Numbered from the stretch's first letter, positions 26,310 to 47,375 are shown. The stretch is 64,000 nucleotides of DNA from a virus (IMGVR_UViG_3300015365_000054), one strand, 5' to 3'. Numbers and translations are program-made. The notes: generated by a model from the letters alone, not told the origin.

Positions 26310-27704
26310 CTATTCGTTAGACCTATTGCGAATCTCGTCAAACGTGTATTCTTTAACCAGCTTACCATTTTCAAATATTGTTTCCAGTACTGGTTTCCAT
26401 TCAACCCCACGATCCGCCCAATTAGTGGGCTTTTCGATAGATGATTGATATTCACCACCACATTCCCATAGCTCAATTCGTCCTTTCTTGCTGCGCTTTC
26501 CTGAATCTGTAATTGGATCTTTCTGTACATCTTCCCAAACATCATCAATACAAGCGGATGAACATTTCATAGCAAATTTTGCGGTATCTCGGACAACACC
26601 TTGAAGTAGAGCACCACCCATACCAAATGCGATGTTATCTGCACTCCATCCATTTACTTCAAACGTGTGTAGAATTGATTCAATGGTATTTTCGTTGACA
26701 CCATCGCCTTGAATCAGTCTTACATGATTCAGTACTTTGTATCCCTTAGAGTTTTTAATGTAACCAAATTTACTACCCAGAATCTCAATTAGCTTGATAT
26801 TGACTTCTACAGGGTCACCTGAATCAGGACGGATAACAACAACCGCACCGCTGTCGATAACTTCCTGTCTTAGTTCTTCACCCCACAGTTTTTCTGCGGC
26901 ATTAAACACATCATAACTATCAGATACGCATGCTAGGATAGCACCCGGTTTTGCATAATTTTTCAACATGTTTCTATATGCATCAACTTCACGGTCTCTG
27001 CCCCATGAAGTCACAGTGCTGTGCTCCATTGCTGGAATAGAGAAACCAGCAACACCGGCATCGTAATATTCTCTTGCATACAAGAGTCCAGTAATATTAT
27101 CAGTACCCATGAAATTTACAAGGTGAGCAGCACCACCAATACCAACACTTTCCATACTTGACCCACCACGAGCACCAAAATCATGCAATTTGAAATTGAT
27201 ACCAGCAGGATCACCTGTTAGATTTAGGTATGGTAGAATAATGTCTTTAATTGACCTACTTAGTGTAGCGACCGTGGTTGGATACCATACCGCACGTAAT
27301 AATGCAGTCTCTGCTTGAGTGGTTAACCAAAAGCAATTTGTGTCTGTGGCTTCAATCGTAACGAGAACGTTACTGGTTGGCAGAATAGTGCCTTCTGGTA
27401 CAGCCCGAATACGTAATGGCAAATAACCATTGTGTTTATCTAAAATATATTCCCATCCTGCACGATAGAATGGCACACCATGTGCTGTGAGAATCTCGTC
27501 TGCAATGGTAATATCTTCTTTGGTGATTGGCTTGGTTAGATAATCCTTAATGAATATCTGTAGCCCAAAGAATAGAGTCTTTTCCCACGCACCACCACGG
27601 GATTCGATATAAGAATATACACCAGTGGTATTTGGTGGATATTGGTTATACATCGAAGTTTTGTACGAATCTAAATTAAGTATGATATTATTTTCTAGTT
27701 TCAT
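26310..27704 (-). CDS. nadV: nicotinamide phosphoribosyltransferase (Nampt/NadV)
   Basis: 464 aa. N-terminus NIILNLDSYKTSMYNQYPPNTTGVYSYIESRGG is the Nampt signature. Confidence 0.9.
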   Translation of the reverse strand: MKLENNIILNLDSYKTSMYNQYPPNTTGVYSYIESRGGAWEKTLFFGLQIFIKDYLTKPITKEDITIADEILTAHGVPFYRAGWEYILDKHNGYLPLRIRAVPEGTILPTSNVLVTIEATDTNCFWLTTQAETALLRAVWYPTTVATLSRSIKDIILPYLNLTGDPAGINFKLHDFGARGGSSMESVGIGGAAHLVNFMGTDNITGLLYAREYYDAGVAGFSIPAMEHSTVTSWGRDREVDAYRNMLKNYAKPGAILACVSDSYDVFNAAEKLWGEELRQEVIDSGAVVVIRPDSGDPVEVNIKLIEILGSKFGYIKNSKGYKVLNHVRLIQGDGVNENTIESILHTFEVNGWSADNIAFGMGGALLQGVVRDTAKFAMKCSSACIDDVWEDVQKDPITDSGKRSKKGRIELWECGGEYQSSIEKPTNWADRGVEWKPVLETIFENGKLVKEYTFDEIRNRSNE

Positions 27705-29221: not shown

Positions 29222-30250
29222 TTAACCCCCAATAGCCCATGAAATGATATCGTAATGATCTTCAAAACATTCCCAGCGTTTTACTTCTGACAATGGAACC
29301 CACTTTGCTTTTTCAGCATCGTCCATGCCCTTTACTCTAGGAAGTTTACCATCAGGCAATACAATCTTGAATGCATGTGTTACAGTTCTGCCTCTTGATG
29401 AACGTCCAATTGCGTCAAATACTTTGCTATCTACGATTGATCCAGCTAGTACAGGCTCTGGTACTTTGATGCCAGTTTCTTCACGCAGTTCTCGTAACAT
29501 TGCTGCTTCAATGGATTTATCCGTGTCGGCATTGACAAACCCACCGGGTAGTGCCCACAAACCTTTACCGGGTAGTGCTTTTCGCTTGACCATCAGTACA
29601 TGACCAGACTGAATCACTATTGCATCAGTGGTGACAAAGATTGGTGGATGTGGAAGAGGTGCGTATGGTATGTTATATTTTTCAACATGTTGTCTTTCAG
29701 CAATGATCTGGTTAAATGCATCACGCTCATTGACATGAAATCGTTGCAGGAAAGATAGTGTTGATAATGGTACAACACCACGAATGAAATTGAAATTTAG
29801 ATTTTCTCTAAAGAACATTTCGCGGACTGCGGTCGCATCCAATGGTTCAAACAATGGTGTTTCAATGTGAACCCATTGAGGGAACATGTCTAGGTAATCT
29901 GAAGTCCGATCTTTCTTATGCCCAATAATCCCAATGTTGTTATCGATATGGTTGTCGATGCAACCATCGACAATTTCTTGTATCTGAGTTATCCATTTTG
30001 GATTATTATAGATGTAATCCACCGAATGATTGATCTCATAATTCACATCATATTGATTAACAATAGATGAAATCATCTCAGTTCTTTCTTTGAAATTGAA
30101 TGGATTTTTGTATGTTCTTGGTTGATCACAAGAACCGATAATGATAATTAGATTATCTGTTAGTGCTGCTGCACGACGAATTGTTTCTTCATGCCCATTA
30201 TGGCATGGTTGAAAACGTCCAATAAGGACTATATGACTATACACTTTCAT
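29222..30250 (-). CDS. natV: bifunctional NMN adenylyltransferase / Nudix ADP-ribose pyrophosphatase (NadM-Nudix, NatV)
   Basis: N-terminal IGRFQPCHNGHEETI carries the HxGH nucleotidyltransferase motif. C-terminal GGFVNADTDKSIEAAMLRELREETGIKV is a Nudix box. Confidence 0.9.
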   Translation of the reverse strand: MKVYSHIVLIGRFQPCHNGHEETIRRAAALTDNLIIIIGSCDQPRTYKNPFNFKERTEMISSIVNQYDVNYEINHSVDYIYNNPKWITQIQEIVDGCIDNHIDNNIGIIGHKKDRTSDYLDMFPQWVHIETPLFEPLDATAVREMFFRENLNFNFIRGVVPLSTLSFLQRFHVNERDAFNQIIAERQHVEKYNIPYAPLPHPPIFVTTDAIVIQSGHVLMVKRKALPGKGLWALPGGFVNADTDKSIEAAMLRELREETGIKVPEPVLAGSIVDSKVFDAIGRSSRGRTVTHAFKIVLPDGKLPRVKGMDDAEKAKWVPLSEVKRWECFEDHYDIISWAIGG

Positions 30251-35838: not shown

Positions 35839-36516
35839 TTATTTTCTGGAAGTAAGCATTGGTGATGTTCTGATCGGTTGTCGAACTGATTGCAGTCTCT
35901 TCTCAAAAACAACCACACTATCATAGCATGCAATATAATCTGTTATTGCGGTGAATATTGTTGGATTATAATTTTCTCTGATGTGAATAGCATTAATTTC
36001 ATCCAACTTATCTTTAGTGAATTCCATGAAGCTACCACCTTTCTTCAATCCGCCCTCATGTGATTCCCAGTAACATGCATGAGTATCTTCTACCATATAG
36101 ACACCATTGTGGTGTATTTTATCATATAGCAACTCAAATGTTTTCACCATATGCCTATTGATATGGCTACCATCATCCAACACAATATCAATACGTGGAT
36201 ACTTTTCTAAAATAGCATCAATCACAGTAGCATCATCTTGACTACCAATAAACACATCGATATTATTATCGGGATCATTGAATGCCTCACATGCAGGGTT
36301 TATATCCAATCCAACAATCTGACATCCCTCGCCAAAATAATCTCTCCACATCGACAATGATCCGCCACCCATCACACCAATTTCTAGGATGACTGGTGCT
36401 TTTCCCCTGAATCGAGAAAAATGTCGTTCGTATATATCGAAGTAATGTAGCCACTTCTCCATATATAATGTGGAATTGTTAAGACAGTATTTGTGTAAAT
36501 ATCCAGAATTACTCAT
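35839..36516 (-). CDS. class I SAM-dependent methyltransferase, CmcI/rhamnosyl-O-methyltransferase-like
   Basis: VILEIGVMGGGSLSMWRDYFGEGCQIVGLDINP is a motif I/II Rossmann SAM-binding segment, with the acidic IVLDDGSH motif downstream. Confidence 0.55.
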   Translation of the reverse strand: MSNSGYLHKYCLNNSTLYMEKWLHYFDIYERHFSRFRGKAPVILEIGVMGGGSLSMWRDYFGEGCQIVGLDINPACEAFNDPDNNIDVFIGSQDDATVIDAILEKYPRIDIVLDDGSHINRHMVKTFELLYDKIHHNGVYMVEDTHACYWESHEGGLKKGGSFMEFTKDKLDEINAIHIRENYNPTIFTAITDYIACYDSVVVFEKRLQSVRQPIRTSPMLTSRK

Positions 36517-38241: not shown

Positions 38242-39873
38242 TTATGGTATGGGATATGCGTTATTTGCTCCCGGAAGAGCAGGAACACCACCCGGAACAT
38301 TCACAAGAACAATATTAACATTATTGAAAATTTGAGCAGTGTTAGCACCTAATTGCACAACATTTGTTCCTGTCACTAGATCTGATATTGGGATTGTTAC
38401 TGCGAATGTACGCCATGAATATTGTATTTGATCCGGATAAGGCCAAGCTACTGAATGTGCGTGACCATTCACGATTACATTTATCGTAGTTGGTACTGGA
38501 TTCAATTCCCCGTTGAATGAGAACAATACGCGAGCAGCCGCAGCTTGTCTGTTAGCTGGCATACCCAACACATTCCATGTTGATGTTTGATTAGCAGCGG
38601 AGAATTTGCCCAGATTTATGGAATTATTAACCCCAGCAATATTATTATCTAATGCATCATAACTAAAATCACGATATGTGAACTGACCATCAAACGCAAC
38701 ATTATCCCAAGCAAAAGTGTGGTTTCTCTGTGAAGGACGATCTGTTGGGCCTTTGTCTGCATTATAGTGTACGTCTTCTAACCATATCAATCCTTTCGTT
38801 AGAGTTAGATTTAAATTAGTAATGACCGCAATATGTTTTAATGATGCAAGAGTAGCAGGTACTCCGGCATCTGTTGCATATACATCTATCTGATTCTGTG
38901 AAATTTTCAATTCCACATGATTCATTTGACCAGTAACAGTTGGTTCAGTAACACAATCCAATTGCGTTACCTTTATATTTGTATTAGGAGTAATACCAGG
39001 GAATGTGTCATCTAATACATAATTGCGAGAAACCACAACAGAATCAACAGTCCATCTCAATTTATCACTGTTAGTTAAATTTGGACAAAGACCAAATTGT
39101 CCAATAGGAGCACCCGCCGCAAAACGAACACCAAATCCATTAGCGGGTAATGATTGCCATGAGTCGAAATGATTAAATGGGATGGGTACTGGAAGATCCG
39201 ACATCCAAAATTCTGGCCAGGCTGCATGTGGTCCGCCCGTATCATTCGACACATCAAAACTTACTGTTCCAGTACGTCCAGCAAAATCAAATGGTTGTTT
39301 AGGATACATAGCAAGTGTTGTTACGCTACCAGCCTCAAATGCTCCAGTAAGGTTGTCATTGGTTGCTTCTCTAAGTTGACCATTACAAATAATAACATCA
39401 TTTGGTGGGTTTACTGGTGTCATTACACCATTACAATTTTCTATTATTGCTTGTGCCCATGTATTCCAATTACTTTGACCAAAATTAACTTCACCACCAG
39501 CCCTCGAAACACCCCAAACATTAGCATCTAAATCACCAGATCGACTTACTGTTTTATGTGGCGCATCAAATGTATCACAGAAAATAGCTGGAGTATCATT
39601 TAATAACATGCCACATGGATTATCTGTGGATGCCACTGAACTGGAAGAACTACTTGAACTACTTGATACACTATTAGAACTTGAAGAGCTAGAGCTAGAT
39701 AAACTAGAACTTGAACTAGAACTAGATACAACACTACTGGATGAACTAGAGCTGGATGATAATAGTTGATCACAAGTTGGACAACTGATGTTAAGTGATT
39801 GGTTACAACTATTAAGTCCAGCTGTAGCTGCTAATAGCGTTAATAATAATACAAATACATTGTTCATAATCAC
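38242..39873 (-). CDS. secreted or lipoprotein with a poly-Ser linker and a beta-rich C-terminal domain (paralog A, 543 aa)
   Basis: Signal peptide ending LNSC. A 44-residue run SSSSSSSSSVVSSSSSSSSLSSSSSSSSNSVSSSSSSSSSSVAS. The globular part shares FCDTFDAP, QPFDFAGRTGTxSFDV and WDNVAFDG with paralog B. Confidence 0.6.
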   Translation of the reverse strand: MIMNNVFVLLLTLLAATAGLNSCNQSLNISCPTCDQLLSSSSSSSSSVVSSSSSSSSLSSSSSSSSNSVSSSSSSSSSSVASTDNPCGMLLNDTPAIFCDTFDAPHKTVSRSGDLDANVWGVSRAGGEVNFGQSNWNTWAQAIIENCNGVMTPVNPPNDVIICNGQLREATNDNLTGAFEAGSVTTLAMYPKQPFDFAGRTGTVSFDVSNDTGGPHAAWPEFWMSDLPVPIPFNHFDSWQSLPANGFGVRFAAGAPIGQFGLCPNLTNSDKLRWTVDSVVVSRNYVLDDTFPGITPNTNIKVTQLDCVTEPTVTGQMNHVELKISQNQIDVYATDAGVPATLASLKHIAVITNLNLTLTKGLIWLEDVHYNADKGPTDRPSQRNHTFAWDNVAFDGQFTYRDFSYDALDNNIAGVNNSINLGKFSAANQTSTWNVLGMPANRQAAAARVLFSFNGELNPVPTTINVIVNGHAHSVAWPYPDQIQYSWRTFAVTIPISDLVTGTNVVQLGANTAQIFNNVNIVLVNVPGGVPALPGANNAYPIP

Positions 39874-39877
39874 CCCA

Positions 39878-41794
39878 TTAGTGTGTTAAAATAAGATCAA
39901 TGTTTGCAACAGTTGGGAAGTATCCACCAAATGGCACATTGACAGTTGCGATTTCTAATACATTATCCCCATCAACAAGATCATACACCGGCACATCAAC
40001 AACATGTCCAAAGACACCTTGCATTCCACCATTAGCCTGTCCAAGCTTAGAACCCATGAATACTATACCATTGTTATACATCGCCACTTCCTGCATAGAC
40101 AATGTATATACATGCCATGCTTTACCATTTACTCTGTATTTGAATCCCCAATCAAGTGTTGCTGGAGTCCAGCTACCCCAATAATGTAGATTCAATGTTA
40201 ACTTGGCACTGGATGCTGTAGATGAACCAGTGACATTGTGTATTGTGAGTGGGATGATTGGTTTAGTTGAATCATCTATGAAATAACCCACATCCACACC
40301 ATTCTCTACACCTGTAACGCCGGCATCTGTTCTCGAATCTGGCTTGTAAGAATCATATACTTCAAATTCTTTAGTGTTAGTAATTGCAGGTCCATCAAAT
40401 CCTACGTTATCCCAGCTGGCTACCCAAGCAGCTTGCATGTCTGGTGGGCTTATGACTTGTGTATTCCAATATTTTAATGTTGCATGGTTTCTGCCAATCA
40501 GCTGAACATACCCTCTAGTGAAACCAAGATTAACATTTGCACTTGCAACTAAGCTGAGAGCACCAAAGTGTACTCCATCATCAGAGTAAGGTGTTGCCCA
40601 CAATTCTAATTTAGTTTGTGATAGACGCAATTCAAAGTGGTTTAGGTGATATCGTGAAGCTGTGAAGCAAGGGGCATCACCCCATCCAAAGTCATGATCA
40701 TAATCAACATAGTTTCTAAACTCATGGATCATAGTCACCCACGTATTGCTTGGATTGTCTAAGCAAGATCCAGCCATTTCGACACTGATGCCGTTCTTAG
40801 GTATCAAACCAGTTTCAAAATTACCAGCACCTGGTATATTAGCAAAAGATGGGGATTGTATTGGATCTTCTGTTACTGCTATCGCAACCCATCCCATAAG
40901 TCCCACAGTTGTGGGATCAACATCGAAAGCAATCGTACCTGTGCGCCCAGCAAAATCAAATGGTTGACGGATGCGATATGAGTTTGAACCATAATTTTGT
41001 GCACCCGTTGCAGTCTTTAGGAATCTGCTTTGGATAGCACTGTTGCTATCACATATTCTAGTATCATATGGTGGTAGATTGGTGGCTGGGATATCAAAAC
41101 GACAATCCAACATAGATGCAGCACCAACAATAATGTCTGGGTGACTGAGATCAGGAGCCATACGAGCTAAACTCCAGCGTGTGGAATCCAATTCATAAGA
41201 ACGTCCTGATAATGAAGTTGCTGGTGCATCAAAGGTATCACAGAATGCTGGAGAAGAAAGTCCACATTGCGAACCAGATGATGCGCTACTAGAAGAGCTA
41301 GAGCTACTAGATGATCCTGATCCAGAAGAATTTACACTACAGTTAATTACCACATCAGTAACATCAGCACCACTAATAGTGCCTGAGTTGTTTAAAGCAA
41401 GACAAGTCTCACCACTTGGTTGAATTGCAACATTCACTGCATATGTAGAACCATCTGCTACTAGTGTATTGAATTTAAATGATGTTGCAGTATTAGCTAT
41501 CACTAAACTAGATGTATTCATTCTGAGTACTAATCCAGATACATTCAATCCAGTGATTGAACCCGAAATAGAATAGAAACTAGGTTGGTTTACTGATGAA
41601 CTAGAAGAACTTGATACACTGGAAACGCTAGACGAGCTACTGGAAACGCTTGAGGAACTACTAGACAGTGATGTAGTAGTGAGACATATCATTGTTCCGG
41701 AGGATGAACTGTTACCTGAACAGTTTAATGAGATTACACCATCACACCCAGAAAGGACAAGCAATAATAGTACAAATGAGAATATTTTTGTCAT
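39878..41794 (-). CDS. lipoprotein with two poly-Ser linkers, an Ig/beta-sandwich-like module and a beta-rich domain (paralog B, 638 aa)
   Basis: Lipobox LLLLVLSGC. Ser-rich linkers flank a 90-aa module. Shares AFCDTFDAP, QPFDFAGRTGTIAFDV and WDNVGFDG with paralog A. Confidence 0.6.
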   Translation of the reverse strand: MTKIFSFVLLLLVLSGCDGVISLNCSGNSSSSGTMICLTTTSLSSSSSSVSSSSSSVSSVSSSSSSSVNQPSFYSISGSITGLNVSGLVLRMNTSSLVIANTATSFKFNTLVADGSTYAVNVAIQPSGETCLALNNSGTISGADVTDVVINCSVNSSGSGSSSSSSSSSSASSGSQCGLSSPAFCDTFDAPATSLSGRSYELDSTRWSLARMAPDLSHPDIIVGAASMLDCRFDIPATNLPPYDTRICDSNSAIQSRFLKTATGAQNYGSNSYRIRQPFDFAGRTGTIAFDVDPTTVGLMGWVAIAVTEDPIQSPSFANIPGAGNFETGLIPKNGISVEMAGSCLDNPSNTWVTMIHEFRNYVDYDHDFGWGDAPCFTASRYHLNHFELRLSQTKLELWATPYSDDGVHFGALSLVASANVNLGFTRGYVQLIGRNHATLKYWNTQVISPPDMQAAWVASWDNVGFDGPAITNTKEFEVYDSYKPDSRTDAGVTGVENGVDVGYFIDDSTKPIIPLTIHNVTGSSTASSAKLTLNLHYWGSWTPATLDWGFKYRVNGKAWHVYTLSMQEVAMYNNGIVFMGSKLGQANGGMQGVFGHVVDVPVYDLVDGDNVLEIATVNVPFGGYFPTVANIDLILTH

Positions 41795-41890
41795 ATCAAT
41801 CCACCCAATACAATTGTTTTATTGTATTTAGTAAAATCAGAATGACCAAATCCGCCCTGCATTCCTGCAAGACGGATTTTTATTATTCCC

Positions 41891-42457
41891 TCAGTTGTTC
41901 CAGACTCTGGAAGTTTTTGGGATACTAGCCATTAGGAATTCCATCTGATCCGCAAGTACTTTCCTATTTTGCAGAAGAATCCGTTCATGTACTGTTGGTG
42001 CATATGGAACATAAAGAAGCTCCATTCCAGCATCTTTTAGTAGTCTGTCACCTTTGTAATGATTACATCTTTTACATGCAGTCACACAGTTTACCCACAT
42101 ATTGGATCCACCCTTAGATTTTGGATGAACGTGATCAATTGTTAGGTTACTTGAAGTAAATACTTCCCCACAGTATGCACACATATGTCTATCTCTGGCA
42201 TATAGTGTCCATCTATCTGCGTACTTTGTTTCTCTGCTGTAGAATTTGTCGCCAAGGATTGGTCCGGACACACCTATGATGGCTGACACATTCAGAATGG
42301 ATTGTTCACCATTCTTATTATGACCACCATGGAATGTTCGTACTGTTTGACCAACTTCCCATAGAACCTTTTCTCTTGCGTAGTAGCAGCAAGCGTCTTC
42401 TGTGGAAGCCCAATCTTTTGGAGTACCATTTTTATCAACAACTAATACCTGTACCAT
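41891..42457 (-). CDS. HNH endonuclease (McrA-like)
   Basis: CAYCG...LTIDHVHPKSKGGSNMWVNCVTACKRCNHYKG is an HNH motif with two Zn-binding Cys pairs. Confidence 0.8.
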   Translation of the reverse strand: MVQVLVVDKNGTPKDWASTEDACCYYAREKVLWEVGQTVRTFHGGHNKNGEQSILNVSAIIGVSGPILGDKFYSRETKYADRWTLYARDRHMCAYCGEVFTSSNLTIDHVHPKSKGGSNMWVNCVTACKRCNHYKGDRLLKDAGMELLYVPYAPTVHERILLQNRKVLADQMEFLMASIPKTSRVWNN

Positions 42458-42493
42458 ATTATATCTCTAAAATAACAATTATTTATAACCGAA

Positions 42494-43084
42494 TCATTCA
42501 TCTCCACCAGACAATAAGAACTTATTGCTGATTGTTTTGAAGCTGAAATCTTCGTTCACATTTTTCCAAACCAATCCTTCTCTGACTTTGGCGTTAATTG
42601 ATGCACCATCAGCAAATGCTAATAGATCACCAACAGTGTTACCAATTTCAGCTGGAGTGTAGTGCCCAATCACAGGAACATGTTCAATGCAATCAGTCAA
42701 ACCAAGATTCTTCATAACATTAAAGAGTTGCATTCTATCTGCTGGGGATAAATACGATTGTTTATCGATATCGAAAATATCAAAAACAAACAATTTAACA
42801 TCATCAAATCCTTCCTTGTTTCCTTGAATACCTGGTCCCATAAGTTCACATTGGATGGCGATATTCCCATAAGAATCACCGTGGTTTTTTAATAGGTCAA
42901 GTAATCCGGATAGACGTGCTGCTCGAACAAACGAATTACCAGCATTTTCGTCCGAAATTACAAGATCCATATTCCTAGAACATACCCCAACATCACCATC
43001 ATTGTAGTAGATGGTGCAAGAACTTCTTATATTTTTCTTTTCTGGATTCAACATATGCATGCTCAACTTCTTTACCAAATCCAT
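42494..43084 (-). CDS. hypothetical protein with Rnl2-like nucleotidyltransferase motifs III-V but no motif I
   Basis: IQCELMGPGIQG resembles motif III, EGLVWK motif IV and FKTISNKF motif V of ATP-dependent RNA ligases. No KxDGxN was found. The listed ORF uses a TTG start at 43099, and the first ATG is at 43084. Confidence 0.3.
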   Translation of the reverse strand: MDLVKKLSMHMLNPEKKNIRSSCTIYYNDGDVGVCSRNMDLVISDENAGNSFVRAARLSGLLDLLKNHGDSYGNIAIQCELMGPGIQGNKEGFDDVKLFVFDIFDIDKQSYLSPADRMQLFNVMKNLGLTDCIEHVPVIGHYTPAEIGNTVGDLLAFADGASINAKVREGLVWKNVNEDFSFKTISNKFLLSGGDE

Positions 43085-43913
43085 GGTCACGAGCCACAAT
43101 ATGTTTCTCCCCAGTTAATGGATGCGTCCATATTCCCATATTTTTTATCTGTCCATAATCAGCTGGCGATGTTCCCATGTTATTATGGAAATCTGTAAAT
43201 TTTCGAACCAATGGATGGTTCGATAGATGATTATGTTTAGCCTCAACCTCTTCTGTATTTTCCCAATATCTACCATTATTCATATGGTGTGTTCTATTCA
43301 ACGTATCAACAAAATCTCTATGTGATATTCCTTGTGGATATTCTGGTGTCTTTGTCAATGATTTAAATTGTGATGGTGATACATTAGATACATGACCAAC
43401 ATGACTCCATGTATGTGTGTGCCAATCATGATCCACTAATGGTGGAAATATACCATCATGATTGGTTTCATAGTTACCATTATCCTTATGCTCTAATACC
43501 CTATAACCAGCATTTACAAACGAATCCGCATTCTCTGATGCATTTTGCATCTCACCCAAGCTTCTATCGCCATATTCTTGCTTCTTATGGAATTTATCCA
43601 ATGCGCTTCTAATAGCAACTTTCATTCCGGTTGCCATTGTTGTTGGTGTACCATCCACAGTCACGGGCACACGTTCTCCAATTTTCAGATATGCACGGGA
43701 GCTGCCTTTTGGCATGTTCCCTTCAATACCCGTCTCTTCGCCACGATTTGTTAGTTCACGTATTTTCTTAGCAAGTTTCGTCTGCATTGGCGTAGTTGAG
43801 CGTATCCCAGCTGCGCGTGATGCATATGATGTATCATGTATCACATCCTGTAATTCAGGATGTAAGTTCTCTGTAATTAGGTTGATTATAAAATCTTTGA
43901 AATTTGTGATCAT
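42999..43913 (-). CDS. His-rich hypothetical protein (304 aa)
   Basis: Many His residues (HDWHTHTWSHVGHV, HNHLSNH), suggestive of metal binding. Its 3' end overlaps the downstream ORF by about 86-101 nt in another frame. Confidence 0.4.
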   Translation of the reverse strand: MITNFKDFIINLITENLHPELQDVIHDTSYASRAAGIRSTTPMQTKLAKKIRELTNRGEETGIEGNMPKGSSRAYLKIGERVPVTVDGTPTTMATGMKVAIRSALDKFHKKQEYGDRSLGEMQNASENADSFVNAGYRVLEHKDNGNYETNHDGIFPPLVDHDWHTHTWSHVGHVSNVSPSQFKSLTKTPEYPQGISHRDFVDTLNRTHHMNNGRYWENTEEVEAKHNHLSNHPLVRKFTDFHNNMGTSPADYGQIKNMGIWTHPLTGEKHIVARDHGFGKEVEHAYVESRKEKYKKFLHHLLQ

Positions 43914-46982: not shown

Positions 46983-47375
46983 TTAGATGATGATATCCAT
47001 TCCCAAAACGGCATCTCTTTTGATGAATTTGAAGAGGGTTTGCTGTGGCGAAAAATACTCACTAACTACAGAAATAACATCAGATGCATGGAATTTCTTA
47101 CATGAGAACACATCCAGATACATGTCTCCGGTATCATTACAGAAATGAGCACAAATATTACTGGTTTCAATCAGCTGAACAAGGGTGTATCCTGCCTTGT
47201 TTCCTGTGCCGAAATTGACAATTTGTGGATCACCATATGCCACCATATCAATTCTTTTCACTAATTCCCTAACAAAGGCATCAATATTATCCTTATCCAT
47301 TATCTTTTCTTTATCACATGCTGCGCAATTCAGCATCAATGAAAATCCCCAATATCCACTCATATTACTCTCCAA
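46983..47375 (-). CDS. speD: S-adenosylmethionine decarboxylase proenzyme (pyruvoyl-dependent, SpeH/SpeD-type)
   Basis: 130 aa. GYTLVQLIETSNICAHF contains the E-S self-cleavage site. Flanking AYGDPQIVNFG and DMYLDVFSCKKF fit bacterial SpeH. Confidence 0.65.
   Translation of the reverse strand: MESNMSGYWGFSLMLNCAACDKEKIMDKDNIDAFVRELVKRIDMVAYGDPQIVNFGTGNKAGYTLVQLIETSNICAHFCNDTGDMYLDVFSCKKFHASDVISVVSEYFSPQQTLFKFIKRDAVLGMDIII

Follow-up and report, generated by a model that had tools for sequence, protein, structure and literature searches.

Two exported poly-serine proteins of a T4-like phage, members of an unnamed bacterial family with a possible role at the glycans of the host envelope

Two adjacent genes in a stretch of viral DNA (IMGVR_UViG_3300015365_000054; 64,000 nucleotides, hereafter the window) encode proteins, P1 and P2, that combine N-terminal export signals, serine tracts and a common beta-rich region. 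The question raised by this locus is from where a phage obtained such proteins and what they would do during infection. The source of the window is a T4-like myovirus, as had been assigned in the initial annotation: genes for the baseplate wedge and hub, PhoH and RNA ligase are present, together with 27 tRNA genes.

Gene layout, export signals and serine tracts

Both ORFs are present on the minus strand, P2 being followed by P1, and the features referred to below are as follows.

39878..41794, minus strand: P2 gene, 638 aa, P2-type subfamily, predicted lipoprotein precursor
41744..41794, minus strand: P2 signal peptide with canonical lipobox, MTKIFSFVLLLLVLSG before the Cys and Asp at +2
41594..41671, minus strand: P2 poly-Ser linker 1, residues 42-67, 22 of 26 Ser
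41339..41593, minus strand: P2 beta-rich spacer module, residues 68-152 (85 aa), between the two Ser tracts
41270..41329, minus strand: P2 poly-Ser/Gly linker 2, residues 156-175, 16 of 20 Ser
40385..41275, minus strand: P2 ConA-like jelly roll, residues ~174-470, placed by alignment with the modelled P1 domain
39881..40384, minus strand: C-terminal CBM-like beta-sandwich region of P2, residues ~471-638, placed by homology to the last domain of the P1 model
38242..39873, minus strand: P1 gene, P1-type subfamily, 543 aa from GTG 39873 or 541 aa from ATG 39867, the probable true start
39805..39867, minus strand: P1 export signal with non-canonical lipobox, MNNVFVLLLTLLAATAGLNS before the Cys (Asn at -2)
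39637..39759, minus strand: P1 poly-Ser linker, residues 39-79, 36 of 41 Ser
38686..39624, minus strand: P1 ConA-like lectin/glucanase jelly roll, residues 84-396, modelled
38290..38685, minus strand: P1 CBM-like beta-sandwich, residues 397-528, modelled
41848..41879, minus strand: strong RNA hairpin, located after the HNH stop codon and before the P2 start
41848..41821, minus strand: sigma-70-like promoter match after the hairpin, 9 of 12 positions

Of the two possible P1 starts, ATG 39867 is the likelier one because a GGGGTG ribosome-binding site is located 5-10 nt 5' of it and 541 aa is also the length of P1-type proteins in independent metagenomic gene calls (P0003 and P0001, the latter 541 aa long and 100% identical to P1 across the domain). 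Depending on the start codon used, 4-10 nt separate the P2 stop codon from the P1 start. The hairpin upstream of P2 (-24.6 kcal/mol, z -5.8) was not equalled by any of 200 shuffled sequences, and together with the promoter match it may delimit a P2-P1 transcription unit; as the region has no more promoter-like sites than shuffled sequence (16 against an expected 18), the promoter match is weak evidence. The neighbours of the pair are non-structural (an adjoining HNH endonuclease gene, RNA ligase, PhoH and a methyltransferase), and the baseplate block lies ~20 kb away. NAD salvage genes, NAMPT and a NadR-like gene are also carried by the phage, and no sugar uptake or catabolic genes were found beside the pair.

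Lipoprotein signals had been proposed for both proteins, and this held for P2 (LSGC) but not in full for P1 (LNSC). The rule applied (PROSITE PS51257-type) demands a hydrophobic h-region followed by [LVI][ASTVI][GAS]-C within the first ~35 residues, and uncharged residues directly before this box. P2 passed this rule, and its signal gave a weak match to Pfam LPAM_1 (E 0.24). The lipobox and the Asp at +2 are kept in the phage relatives P0121 and P0122, the G-C-D-G junction being retained in P0122 despite a diverged signal peptide. P1 (...AATAGLNS-C) did not pass, since Asn is disallowed at -2, and its n-region contains no K or R; it retains the h-region and the Cys, and the same sequence is found in the phage relative P0003. 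Most full-length bacterial P1-type homologs have a canonical lipobox (e.g., LAGC in P0006 and VVGC in P0104). Judged from these signals, P1 is clearly exported and may be lipidated, although lipidation is uncertain and an alternative cleavage at an A-T-A/G signal-peptidase I site is possible; both proteins are probably membrane-anchored.

The serine tracts connect anchor, spacer module and jelly roll and are polyserine linkers in the sense of near-pure Ser runs separating a signal or anchor from functional modules (PMC2386152). A Ser run of 30-45 residues had been noted in each protein; P1 has one of 41 residues, but P2 has two shorter tracts of 26 and 20 residues. Such tracts are peculiar to the pair, in which the maximum number of Ser in 30 residues is 27 and 22, against at most 10 in all remaining ORFs of the window with a length of 150 aa or more. 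Assembly artefacts, raised beforehand as a possible source of the runs, were ruled out by recurrence in independent assemblies (P0121 alone occurs on 20 contigs), by the mixed Ser codons and by an in-frame 8-codon length polymorphism between P2 linker 1 and its ortholog in the related phage contig L004. The tract of P0003 equals that of P1 in length and is patterned differently. The four tRNA-Ser genes of the phage were considered in connection with the tracts, and no specific evidence for a link was obtained, the codon mix of the tracts being that of the rest of the genome. Within the family, pure poly-Ser linkers were restricted to the phage lineage (four of the 382 proteins checked). The spacer module of P2 had no significant match in searches of PDB or GenBank phages, and P2 residues 56-152 are matched by phrog_24736 (unknown function; E 2e-7); in bacterial relatives such as P0123 the corresponding place is taken by an FN3 domain.

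Fold and conserved residues of the common region

P1 and P2 have a region of ~460 aa in common (BLASTP 31% identity across 367 aa, E 1e-22), which bears out their earlier description as paralogs. All three motifs on which that description relied are shared by P1 and P2, and no other positions in the family are as conserved: FCDTFDAP (P1 residue 98, P2 residue 184), QPFDFAGRTGT (residues 193 and 277) and WDNVxFDG (residues 389 and 461, WDNVGFDG in P2), the three of P2 lying within its jelly roll. In the model of P1, the region consists of a two-sheet jelly roll, which superposes on known members of the concanavalin A-like lectin/glucanase superfamily, and a C-terminal, putatively CBM-like beta-sandwich; alignment with P1 and family members indicates that the C-terminal region of P2 is longer owing to an insertion.

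Sequence comparison placed this region in no established family. The core domain matched no Pfam, PHROG or NCBIfam model, and in the PDB neither single-sequence queries nor a 46-sequence profile rose above chance level (CBM35, E 0.27; protocadherin, E 0.007). Foldseek against BFVD found generic jelly-roll likeness with TM <=0.34 and no close viral structural relative. For GH16, no Pfam match was obtained with P1, P2 or 46 family members even at E 1. The catalytic strand (ExDxxE) is missing and the equivalent strand, which follows a GH16-like WPEFWM motif, differs between the subfamilies (NGFGVRF in P1, NGISVEM in P2, NGFEVQF in the consensus) and has no conserved acidic pair. The L-type lectins (ERGIC-53, VIP36, Emp47p and the legume lectins) are ~10% identical to the domain; no L-type or legume lectin Pfam match was found, and, compared with these lectins, the family is characterized by a ~310-aa jelly roll with insertions and by the C-terminal CBM-like domain. 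No sequence-level relationship was found to the beta-jelly-roll polysaccharide lyases (PL7, PL14, PL20 and PL36). A jelly roll with a sandwich, export signals and genes outside the structural block also distinguish the pair from phage tailspike-type depolymerases, and the only match to the Cor/Llp group was PHROG 1119 (Cor; E 0.23) at P2 residues 1-32, i.e., the signal peptide.

Seven residues are invariant in the family (C147, C163, D196, R200, K374, D390 and D395 in P1 numbering), and N318 and E321 are nearly so. The five charged ones among them are constant in sequences only ~25% identical, a pattern that would suit a conserved chemistry better than a lectin site shaped by specificity alone.

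A bacterial family of two subfamilies and its residence in the phage

The domain is not novel to phages. It belongs to a family of ~1,300 clusters at 50% identity that are almost all bacterial, represented by 1,302 sequences in an exhaustive profile search and by >1,100 and >1,300 word-indexed matches for the two queries. Among 185,579 species genomes, 161 stretches from many phyla encode a relative. The family is unnamed and has no Pfam, NCBIfam or PHROG model. The strict lipobox rule was passed by 74 of 240 homologs, and many others have ordinary Sec signals. Long members additionally carry PA14, type I dockerin, FN3/Big or Sortilin/BNR modules, never a second catalytic domain. The family is rare in phages: neither tblastn with P1 nor megablast with the 8 kb surrounding the locus matched any of 50,697 GenBank phage records. 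Relatives occur on 9 of 2.9 million IMG/VR contigs, which do not indicate that the family is common in phages, as these contigs (43-61% GC, ordinary Sec signals, no poly-Ser) look bacterial or prophage-like.

In the bacterial loci, Wzx/Wzy-type gene clusters for exopolysaccharide and O-antigen recur. Four of the eight loci examined (L001, L002, L007 and L013) lie in or beside clusters of Wzx/Wzy/Wzz/Wza, glycosyltransferase and acyltransferase-3 genes, and the other half contain a conserved module of ECF sigma/anti-sigma, DUF5648, a MauG-like peroxidase and BNR/Sortilin proteins.

The two proteins had been described as tandem paralogs; a tandem duplication within the phage is rejected by three observations. 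P1 and P2 fall into different deep clades of the tree; both types occur within 6 kb of each other in nine bacterial loci, one of them (L016) with the order and orientation of the phage, and the L001 EPS cluster has both types; and single-chain fusions of one P1-type with one P2-type domain exist in both orders. Sequence thus indicates that P1 and P2 are members of two old, deeply separated bacterial subfamilies. As these are kept adjacent or fused in bacteria, P1-type and P2-type proteins probably work together. The closest bacterial relatives are P0002 (80% identical to P1) and P0123 (67% to P2), both of which begin with a lipobox followed by a Ser-rich linker and FN3.

Several lines of evidence bear on how long the pair has been in the phage. 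Its GC3 (0.22 and 0.27) is close to the phage background (0.25-0.31), and the bacterial loci have 54-71% GC. Against the L004 orthologs, dN/dS was 0.062 for P2 and 0.117 for P1, with dS up to 1.25. P2 orthologs at 95-96% identity are found in related phage contigs (P0121 and P0122), and the position of the pair is conserved in ~20 related phage contigs (130-200 kb). From the phage-like codon composition, the low dN/dS (0.06-0.12) and the conserved position, the phage copies are judged to be long-resident, functional and under purifying selection. Between two phages P1 is 80% and P2 94-96% identical; P1 was considered as a diversification hotspot, which was rejected because divergence across the whole region is a mosaic (42-99% per gene).

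Possible roles at the host envelope

The best explanation of these results, put forward tentatively and at a little under an even chance, is that P1 and P2 are host-derived envelope proteins which bind or cleave a host surface glycan during infection. An ancestor of the phage lineage would have captured one P1-type and one P2-type gene from a bacterium like the carrier of P0002 and P0123. The two genes would be co-transcribed and each protein exported through Sec, P2 and possibly P1 being lipid-anchored at the predicted N-terminal Cys, so that the flexible poly-Ser tether could hold the functional region off the membrane. There they would bind the surface or periplasmic polysaccharide of the host and probably cleave or trim it, and the outcome could be that glycan receptors are destroyed or masked on infected cells and debris, or that the matrix is loosened for the release of progeny. 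We infer a glycan ligand, catalysis (as hydrolase or lyase), location in the envelope, cooperation of P1 with P2 and a benefit to the phage. Three results count against this explanation: the missing GH16 catalytic strand, the half of the bacterial contexts that are other than EPS clusters, and the non-canonical P1 lipobox. Envelope remodelling and superinfection exclusion, two of the roles suggested initially, are plausible candidate roles.

Known systems resemble this arrangement in part. In the carbohydrases of Saccharophagus degradans a lipobox and a polyserine linker precede the catalytic module, and in Saccharophagus and Cellvibrio a flexible spacer is believed to tether the enzyme to the outer membrane (PMC2386152). 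The order of parts in the S. degradans and Cellvibrio japonicus enzymes (lipoprotein signal, polyserine linker, carbohydrate module) is that of P1 and P2, but those enzymes are chromosomal and catabolic and belong to defined CAZy families, whereas P1 and P2 have no family assignment and are encoded by a lytic-type phage. The setting of the bacterial homologs is like that of ExoK, a GH16-type succinoglycan glycanase encoded inside the exo cluster of Sinorhizobium meliloti (PMC5748678), and WceF, a stewartan glycosidase of the Pantoea stewartii EPS cluster that forms a beta-helix trimer and shows lectin-like behaviour (PMC7949094); both are secreted, belong to Wzx/Wzy-dependent EPS clusters and act on the cell's own polymer. 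ExoK is of the same broad fold class as P1 (GH16 being a ConA-like jelly roll), although P1 and P2 lack the GH16 strand and Pfam match, while the fold of WceF differs; paired subfamilies are a feature of the present family and not of ExoK or WceF. Among phage proteins, T5 Llp is a lipoprotein by which a lytic phage blocks its own receptor (bioRxiv 10.64898/2026.03.26.714494). Llp and Cor are, as proposed for P1 and P2, made in infection, sent to the host envelope and alter receptor availability; they are small, single-domain proteins binding the protein receptor FhuA, whereas P1 and P2 are multidomain proteins of 541-638 aa with glycan-type folds.

The main alternative, to which perhaps a quarter of the belief is due, is that P1 and P2 are non-catalytic lectins, anchored in the envelope and masking a surface glycan or glycosylated receptor, which like T5 Llp would exclude superinfection and protect progeny from debris. 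Lectins did score above GH16 in the structural comparison, but by only ~1 Z unit. The many charged residues that are invariant across phyla, whose polysaccharides must differ, would be unusual for a pure specificity site, and residence in EPS clusters matches the glycanases ExoK and WceF, though WceF is itself lectin-like.

It is rather improbable that the pair serves auxiliary nutrient acquisition, surface-tethered depolymerases attacking environmental polysaccharide and feeding the infected cell as the Saccharophagus carbohydrases do. The lipobox-polyserine architecture is that of such carbohydrases, some bacterial homologs adjoin GH3, GH44 or BNR/Sortilin genes or bear dockerin, and the phage has other metabolic genes, those for NAD salvage. 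However, breaking down polymer outside the cell would repay slowly within a short lytic infection, the genes around the bacterial homologs serve mainly biosynthesis (Wzx, Wzy, glycosyltransferases) and do not form utilisation loci with transporters, and the phage lacks sugar uptake or catabolic genes beside the pair.

Virion components (decoration proteins, adhesins or tail-associated depolymerases) are a very unlikely reading. A decoration role had been suggested initially and is disfavoured because both P1 and P2 carry Sec-type export signals, tailed-phage virions being assembled in the cytoplasm; the non-structural neighbourhood, the distance from the baseplate block and the BFVD result argue in the same direction. 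An artefact or passive cargo (contamination, chimeric assembly or a recent non-functional insertion), which the identity of up to 80% to bacterial proteins and the adjoining HNH gene might suggest, is hardly credible given the phage-like GC and GC3, the recurrence of the pair at one position in several phage assemblies made independently from different samples and the long-term purifying selection in the phage lineage.

Beyond the preferred reading of P1 and P2 as host-derived glycan-binding or glycan-cleaving envelope proteins, a bolder and rather unlikely proposal is that P1-type and P2-type proteins constitute a two-component (heterodimeric or fused) hydrolase or lyase class of CAZy level on a ConA-like scaffold, which would process Wzx/Wzy-made envelope polysaccharide, and that a lineage of T4-like freshwater phages uses the captured pair as a membrane-tethered receptor-destroying system on infected cells, which would parallel Llp, or viral neuraminidase, with glycan as the target.

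If P1 and P2 were simple lectins or had no role in infection, they would be an ordinary host-derived accessory gene pair. If the preferred reading is true, a lytic-type T4-like phage would retain host-derived envelope glycan machinery under strong selection; to our knowledge, lipoprotein-anchored remodelling by phages is well documented for protein receptors (Llp) and not for polysaccharides in such a form. The same series of lake samples yielded the closest bacterial homologs, which suggest the kind of bacterium that was donor or host. For the family itself, a secreted bacterial group of ~1,300 clusters can now be described by its fold, its domain plan and its recurrent setting in surface-polysaccharide clusters, and with its two subfamilies, kept adjacent or fused, it offers a defined starting point in the search for a new polysaccharide-processing activity.

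Gene pair and encoded proteins

The two open reading frames that the initial annotation had described as tandem paralogous lipoproteins were both found on the minus strand at the positions it gave, and their paralogy is evident from 31% identity across 367 residues (E 1e-22). The three motifs that it had listed as shared (FCDTFDAP, QPFDFAGRTGTxxFDV and WDNVxFDG) are common to P1 and P2, and are the most conserved positions family-wide.

39878..41794, minus strand: P2 gene, 638 aa
38242..39873, minus strand: P1 gene, 543 aa if counted from GTG
41848-41879, minus strand: RNA hairpin of -24.6 kcal/mol (z -5.8) with a 14-bp stem, located between the HNH stop and the start of P2

The P2 stop and the listed GTG of P1 are 4 nt apart. 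The probable start of P1 is the ATG at 39867, because a GGGGTG ribosome-binding site lies directly upstream of it and independent metagenomic gene calls of this protein (P0001 and P0003) are 541 aa long. The gene order at the pair is RNA ligase, HNH endonuclease, P2, P1, small ORFs and PhoH, in a setting of non-structural genes, and it is identical in three related phage contigs of 130-200 kb from lake metagenomes (L004-L006). The hairpin, which lies immediately 3' of the HNH stop codon and is followed by a U-rich stretch, looks like a terminator; it was not reported in a consensus terminator scan. Since this strong hairpin sets the HNH gene apart from the start of P2, P2 and P1 are probably a single transcription unit, for which the promoter evidence is weak.

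A long polyserine run had been claimed for each protein. This holds for P1, with one tract (residues 39-79, 36 of 41 being Ser), while in P2 there are two, both shorter (residues 42-67, 22/26 Ser; residues 156-175, 16/20 Ser), with an 85-aa beta-rich module between them. The ectodomains span residues 84-543 of P1 and 174-638 of P2. None of the other long ORFs of the window came close to this Ser density. An artefactual origin of the tracts was ruled out by their mixed Ser codons, their recurrence in assemblies made independently of several samples (P0121, the phage-lineage version of P2, is on 20 contigs) and an in-frame 8-codon indel in tract length between phage relatives. The tracts are real linkers of variable length and class as poly-Ser linkers by definition; by its sequence, P2 also classes as a lipoprotein. 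The lipoprotein-type signals claimed for both were borne out in P2, where LSG before the Cys is a canonical lipobox with Asp at +2. In P1, LNS before the Cys breaks the PROSITE-type rule at -2 and its lipidation is therefore uncertain; export of P1 is clearly predicted. Under the enterobacterial +2 Asp rule, which is not universal, a lipoprotein is kept in the inner membrane; P2 would remain there if that rule held, but it may not be the host's and is not relied on here.

Shared fold and bacterial relatives

The shared region matched no Pfam, NCBIfam or PHROG model and no PDB sequence. In fold comparison, about 200 residues align, roughly 10% of them identical. A separate model of the final ~130 residues of P1 (pLDDT 86.2) forms a CBM-like beta-sandwich, with which a marginal CBM35 sequence match (E 0.27) agrees. 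A GH16-like WPEFWM strand is kept in the P1 subfamily. The region lacks the catalytic ExDxxE strand of GH16, the equivalent strand varying between subfamilies; when tested, it fell outside GH16. L-type lectins, jelly-roll lyases and CBM6/35 were also considered as families to which it may or may not belong. The polar residues D196, R200, K374, D390 and D395 (P1 numbering) are invariant in the family, and N318 and E321 nearly so; C147 and C163 are further invariant positions. The fold is already known; the family itself is not.

For either of the two phage proteins, over 1,000 homologs were found. An exhaustive profile search of 1.84 billion proteins gave 1,302 representatives at 50% identity, and a scan of 185,579 species genomes gave 161 stretches encoding a relative. 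These come from Pseudomonadota, Myxococcota, Bdellovibrionota, Chloroflexota, Acidobacteriota, Actinomycetota, Gemmatimonadota and Saccharimonadales, chiefly from MAGs of soil, peat and freshwater origin, and multiple copies per genome are common. Close homologs are carried, for example, by Bradyrhizobium sp. McL0615 (57% identical) and Steroidobacteraceae. By their predicted signals the family members are secreted, 74 of 240 following the strict lipobox rule and many others having ordinary Sec signals. The linkers of bacterial members are Pro/Thr/Ala-rich or consist of FN3, He_PIG or Big domains; pure poly-Ser was seen in the phage lineage only (4 of the 382 proteins checked).

In the tree, P1 and P2 belong to different clades with a deep split between them. 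The family is bacterial and the pairing of its two clades, which bacteria also show, is old. At nine bacterial loci, P1-type and P2-type genes lie no more than 6 kb apart, and in a Xanthobacteraceae locus (L016) the pair has the same order and orientation as in the phage; both types are also present in an EPS cluster of 62% GC (L001). Single-chain fusions occur as P1 then P2 (P0241, P0243, P0244 and P0252, P0244 having a C-terminal PA14 domain) and as P2 then P1 (P0242, with an N-terminal collagen repeat, and P0250). Because the two subfamilies are adjacent in bacteria and fused in single polypeptides, they would be expected, on this Rosetta-stone evidence, to act together.

Wzx/Wzy-type polysaccharide clusters contain or adjoin a family member in 4 of the 8 bacterial loci examined:

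L001: Wzx, Wzy, GT2 and acyltransferase-3 genes
L002: Wzx, GT2, epimerase, aminotransferase and Bac_transf genes
L007: Wzy, Wzx, GT2 and GT1 genes
L013: Wza, Wzz, glycosyltransferase, acyltransferase-3, Wzy, GH3 and GH44 genes

A second recurrent module, alternative to the EPS context, consists of an ECF sigma factor, a putative anti-sigma factor of ~230 aa, the family member, DUF5648 (~710 aa), a MauG-type di-haem cytochrome c peroxidase, a ~680-aa protein and Sortilin/BNR (L011 6765-16648, L012 6753-16682 and L007 1272-11797; partial in L010). The extra modules of long members are PA14, type I dockerin, Big/FN3, collagen or BNR, and another catalytic domain is never among them, so the functional part of the proteins appears to be the jelly roll with the sandwich.

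Origin and maintenance in the phage

The window is part of the genome of a large T4-like myovirus. Its genes include those for the baseplate wedge and hub, a tail tube cap, PhoH, NAMPT, a NadR-like protein, an RNA ligase and 27 tRNAs. No close relative was found among GenBank phages.

26310-27704 and 29222-30250, minus strand: NAD salvage genes (nicotinamide phosphoribosyltransferase; NadR-like cytidyltransferase/Nudix fusion)
35839-36516, minus strand: methyltransferase-like gene just downstream of PhoH (phrog_21658, E 1e-20)
42494-43099 and 42999-43913, minus strand: RNA ligase region and adjoining 302-304-aa gene of unknown function (compared with L004 6920-9282)
50255-60045, minus strand: tRNA block of 27 genes, four of them tRNA-Ser (anticodons tga, cga, gga and gct)

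Similar NAD salvage genes are known in other large T4-like phages. By standard wobble pairing the four tRNA-Ser would decode all six Ser codons; a specific link to poly-Ser was not established, the Ser codons of the tracts being mixed much as genome-wide. In L004, a Rv2179c-like gene follows PhoH in place of the methyltransferase-like gene.

The P1 and P2 genes (GC 0.39-0.41, GC3 0.22-0.27) cannot be told from the rest of the phage's genes (GC3 0.25-0.31), whereas GC at the bacterial loci is 54-71%. Between the window and L004, dN/dS is 0.062 for P2 (dS 0.34) and 0.117 for P1 (dS 1.25). No GenBank phage gave a tblastn match to P1, and the IMG/VR relatives are 9 contigs, all bacterial-looking with 43-61% GC. 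Given this phage-like composition, low dN/dS and rarity in viral data, the pair is an old acquisition, under selection and specific to this phage lineage. The nearest bacterial relatives are P0002 (80% to P1) and P0123 (67% to P2). A single donor-like bacterial lineage is suggested, since their N-termini are nearly alike (lipobox, Ser-rich linker, FN3) and P0123, on a contig of 54% GC (L007), comes from the lake sample series that also gave the phage relatives.

The RNA ligase-HNH-P2 block (window 39881-43024, minus strand; L004 8245-11941) has 94-99.5% protein identity, against 42-86% for the flanking genes (P1 80%, PhoH 86%), a disparity that points to recent recombination or homing with the HNH gene (41891-42457) at its centre. 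The ligase ORF of the window has only 201 aa and matches only 176 aa at the C-terminal end of the L004 ortholog (345 aa); the 302-304-aa gene occupies the place of the ortholog's N-terminal half, and the genes around it are ordered otherwise than in L004. This phage may thus have a truncated or rearranged ligase. L004 (5374-6933), L005 and L006 carry, a few kb upstream of P2 and P1, genes for AdoMet decarboxylase, an Asp/Arg hydroxylase and Sulfotransfer_2, a carbohydrate sulfotransferase family. With the L004 proteins in tblastn, the first was located in the window at 46998-47363 and the other two gave no match there.

Possible role during infection

P2 and P1 are read here as host-derived envelope proteins, exported by Sec and tethered to a membrane by N-terminal lipids (for P2 by sequence, for P1 uncertainly), with poly-Ser spacers holding out a glycan-type jelly roll and a CBM-like module. 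During infection they would most likely act on polysaccharide of the host itself, at its surface or in the periplasm, by binding and probably also cutting or trimming it. Glycan receptors on infected cells and debris would thereby be removed or masked, or the matrix loosened when progeny are released. This reading is favoured tentatively; catalysis, substrate, membrane location, cooperation of P1 with P2 and fitness benefit are all what we infer. Masking of receptors by a pair of lectins, with no cutting, is a less likely reading. Nutrient acquisition is improbable, and a role in the virion, for genes among non-structural neighbours, or an artefact is very improbable.

The layout is shared with the lipobox-polyserine carbohydrases of Saccharophagus degradans (PMC2386152), and the bacterial homologs have the same genomic setting as ExoK and WceF, glycanases of EPS clusters (PMC5748678, PMC7949094). 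The purpose proposed for the pair is that of T5 Llp, but Llp acts for a protein receptor; the pair falls outside the definitions of Cor/Llp and of tailspike depolymerases. The carriage of host-derived surface-modifying genes by phages is already a familiar idea. Here, a T4-like phage appears to have captured both members of an uncharacterised, paired ConA-like family of polysaccharide loci and to have given them poly-Ser tethers; the result is useful and testable, and the function putative.
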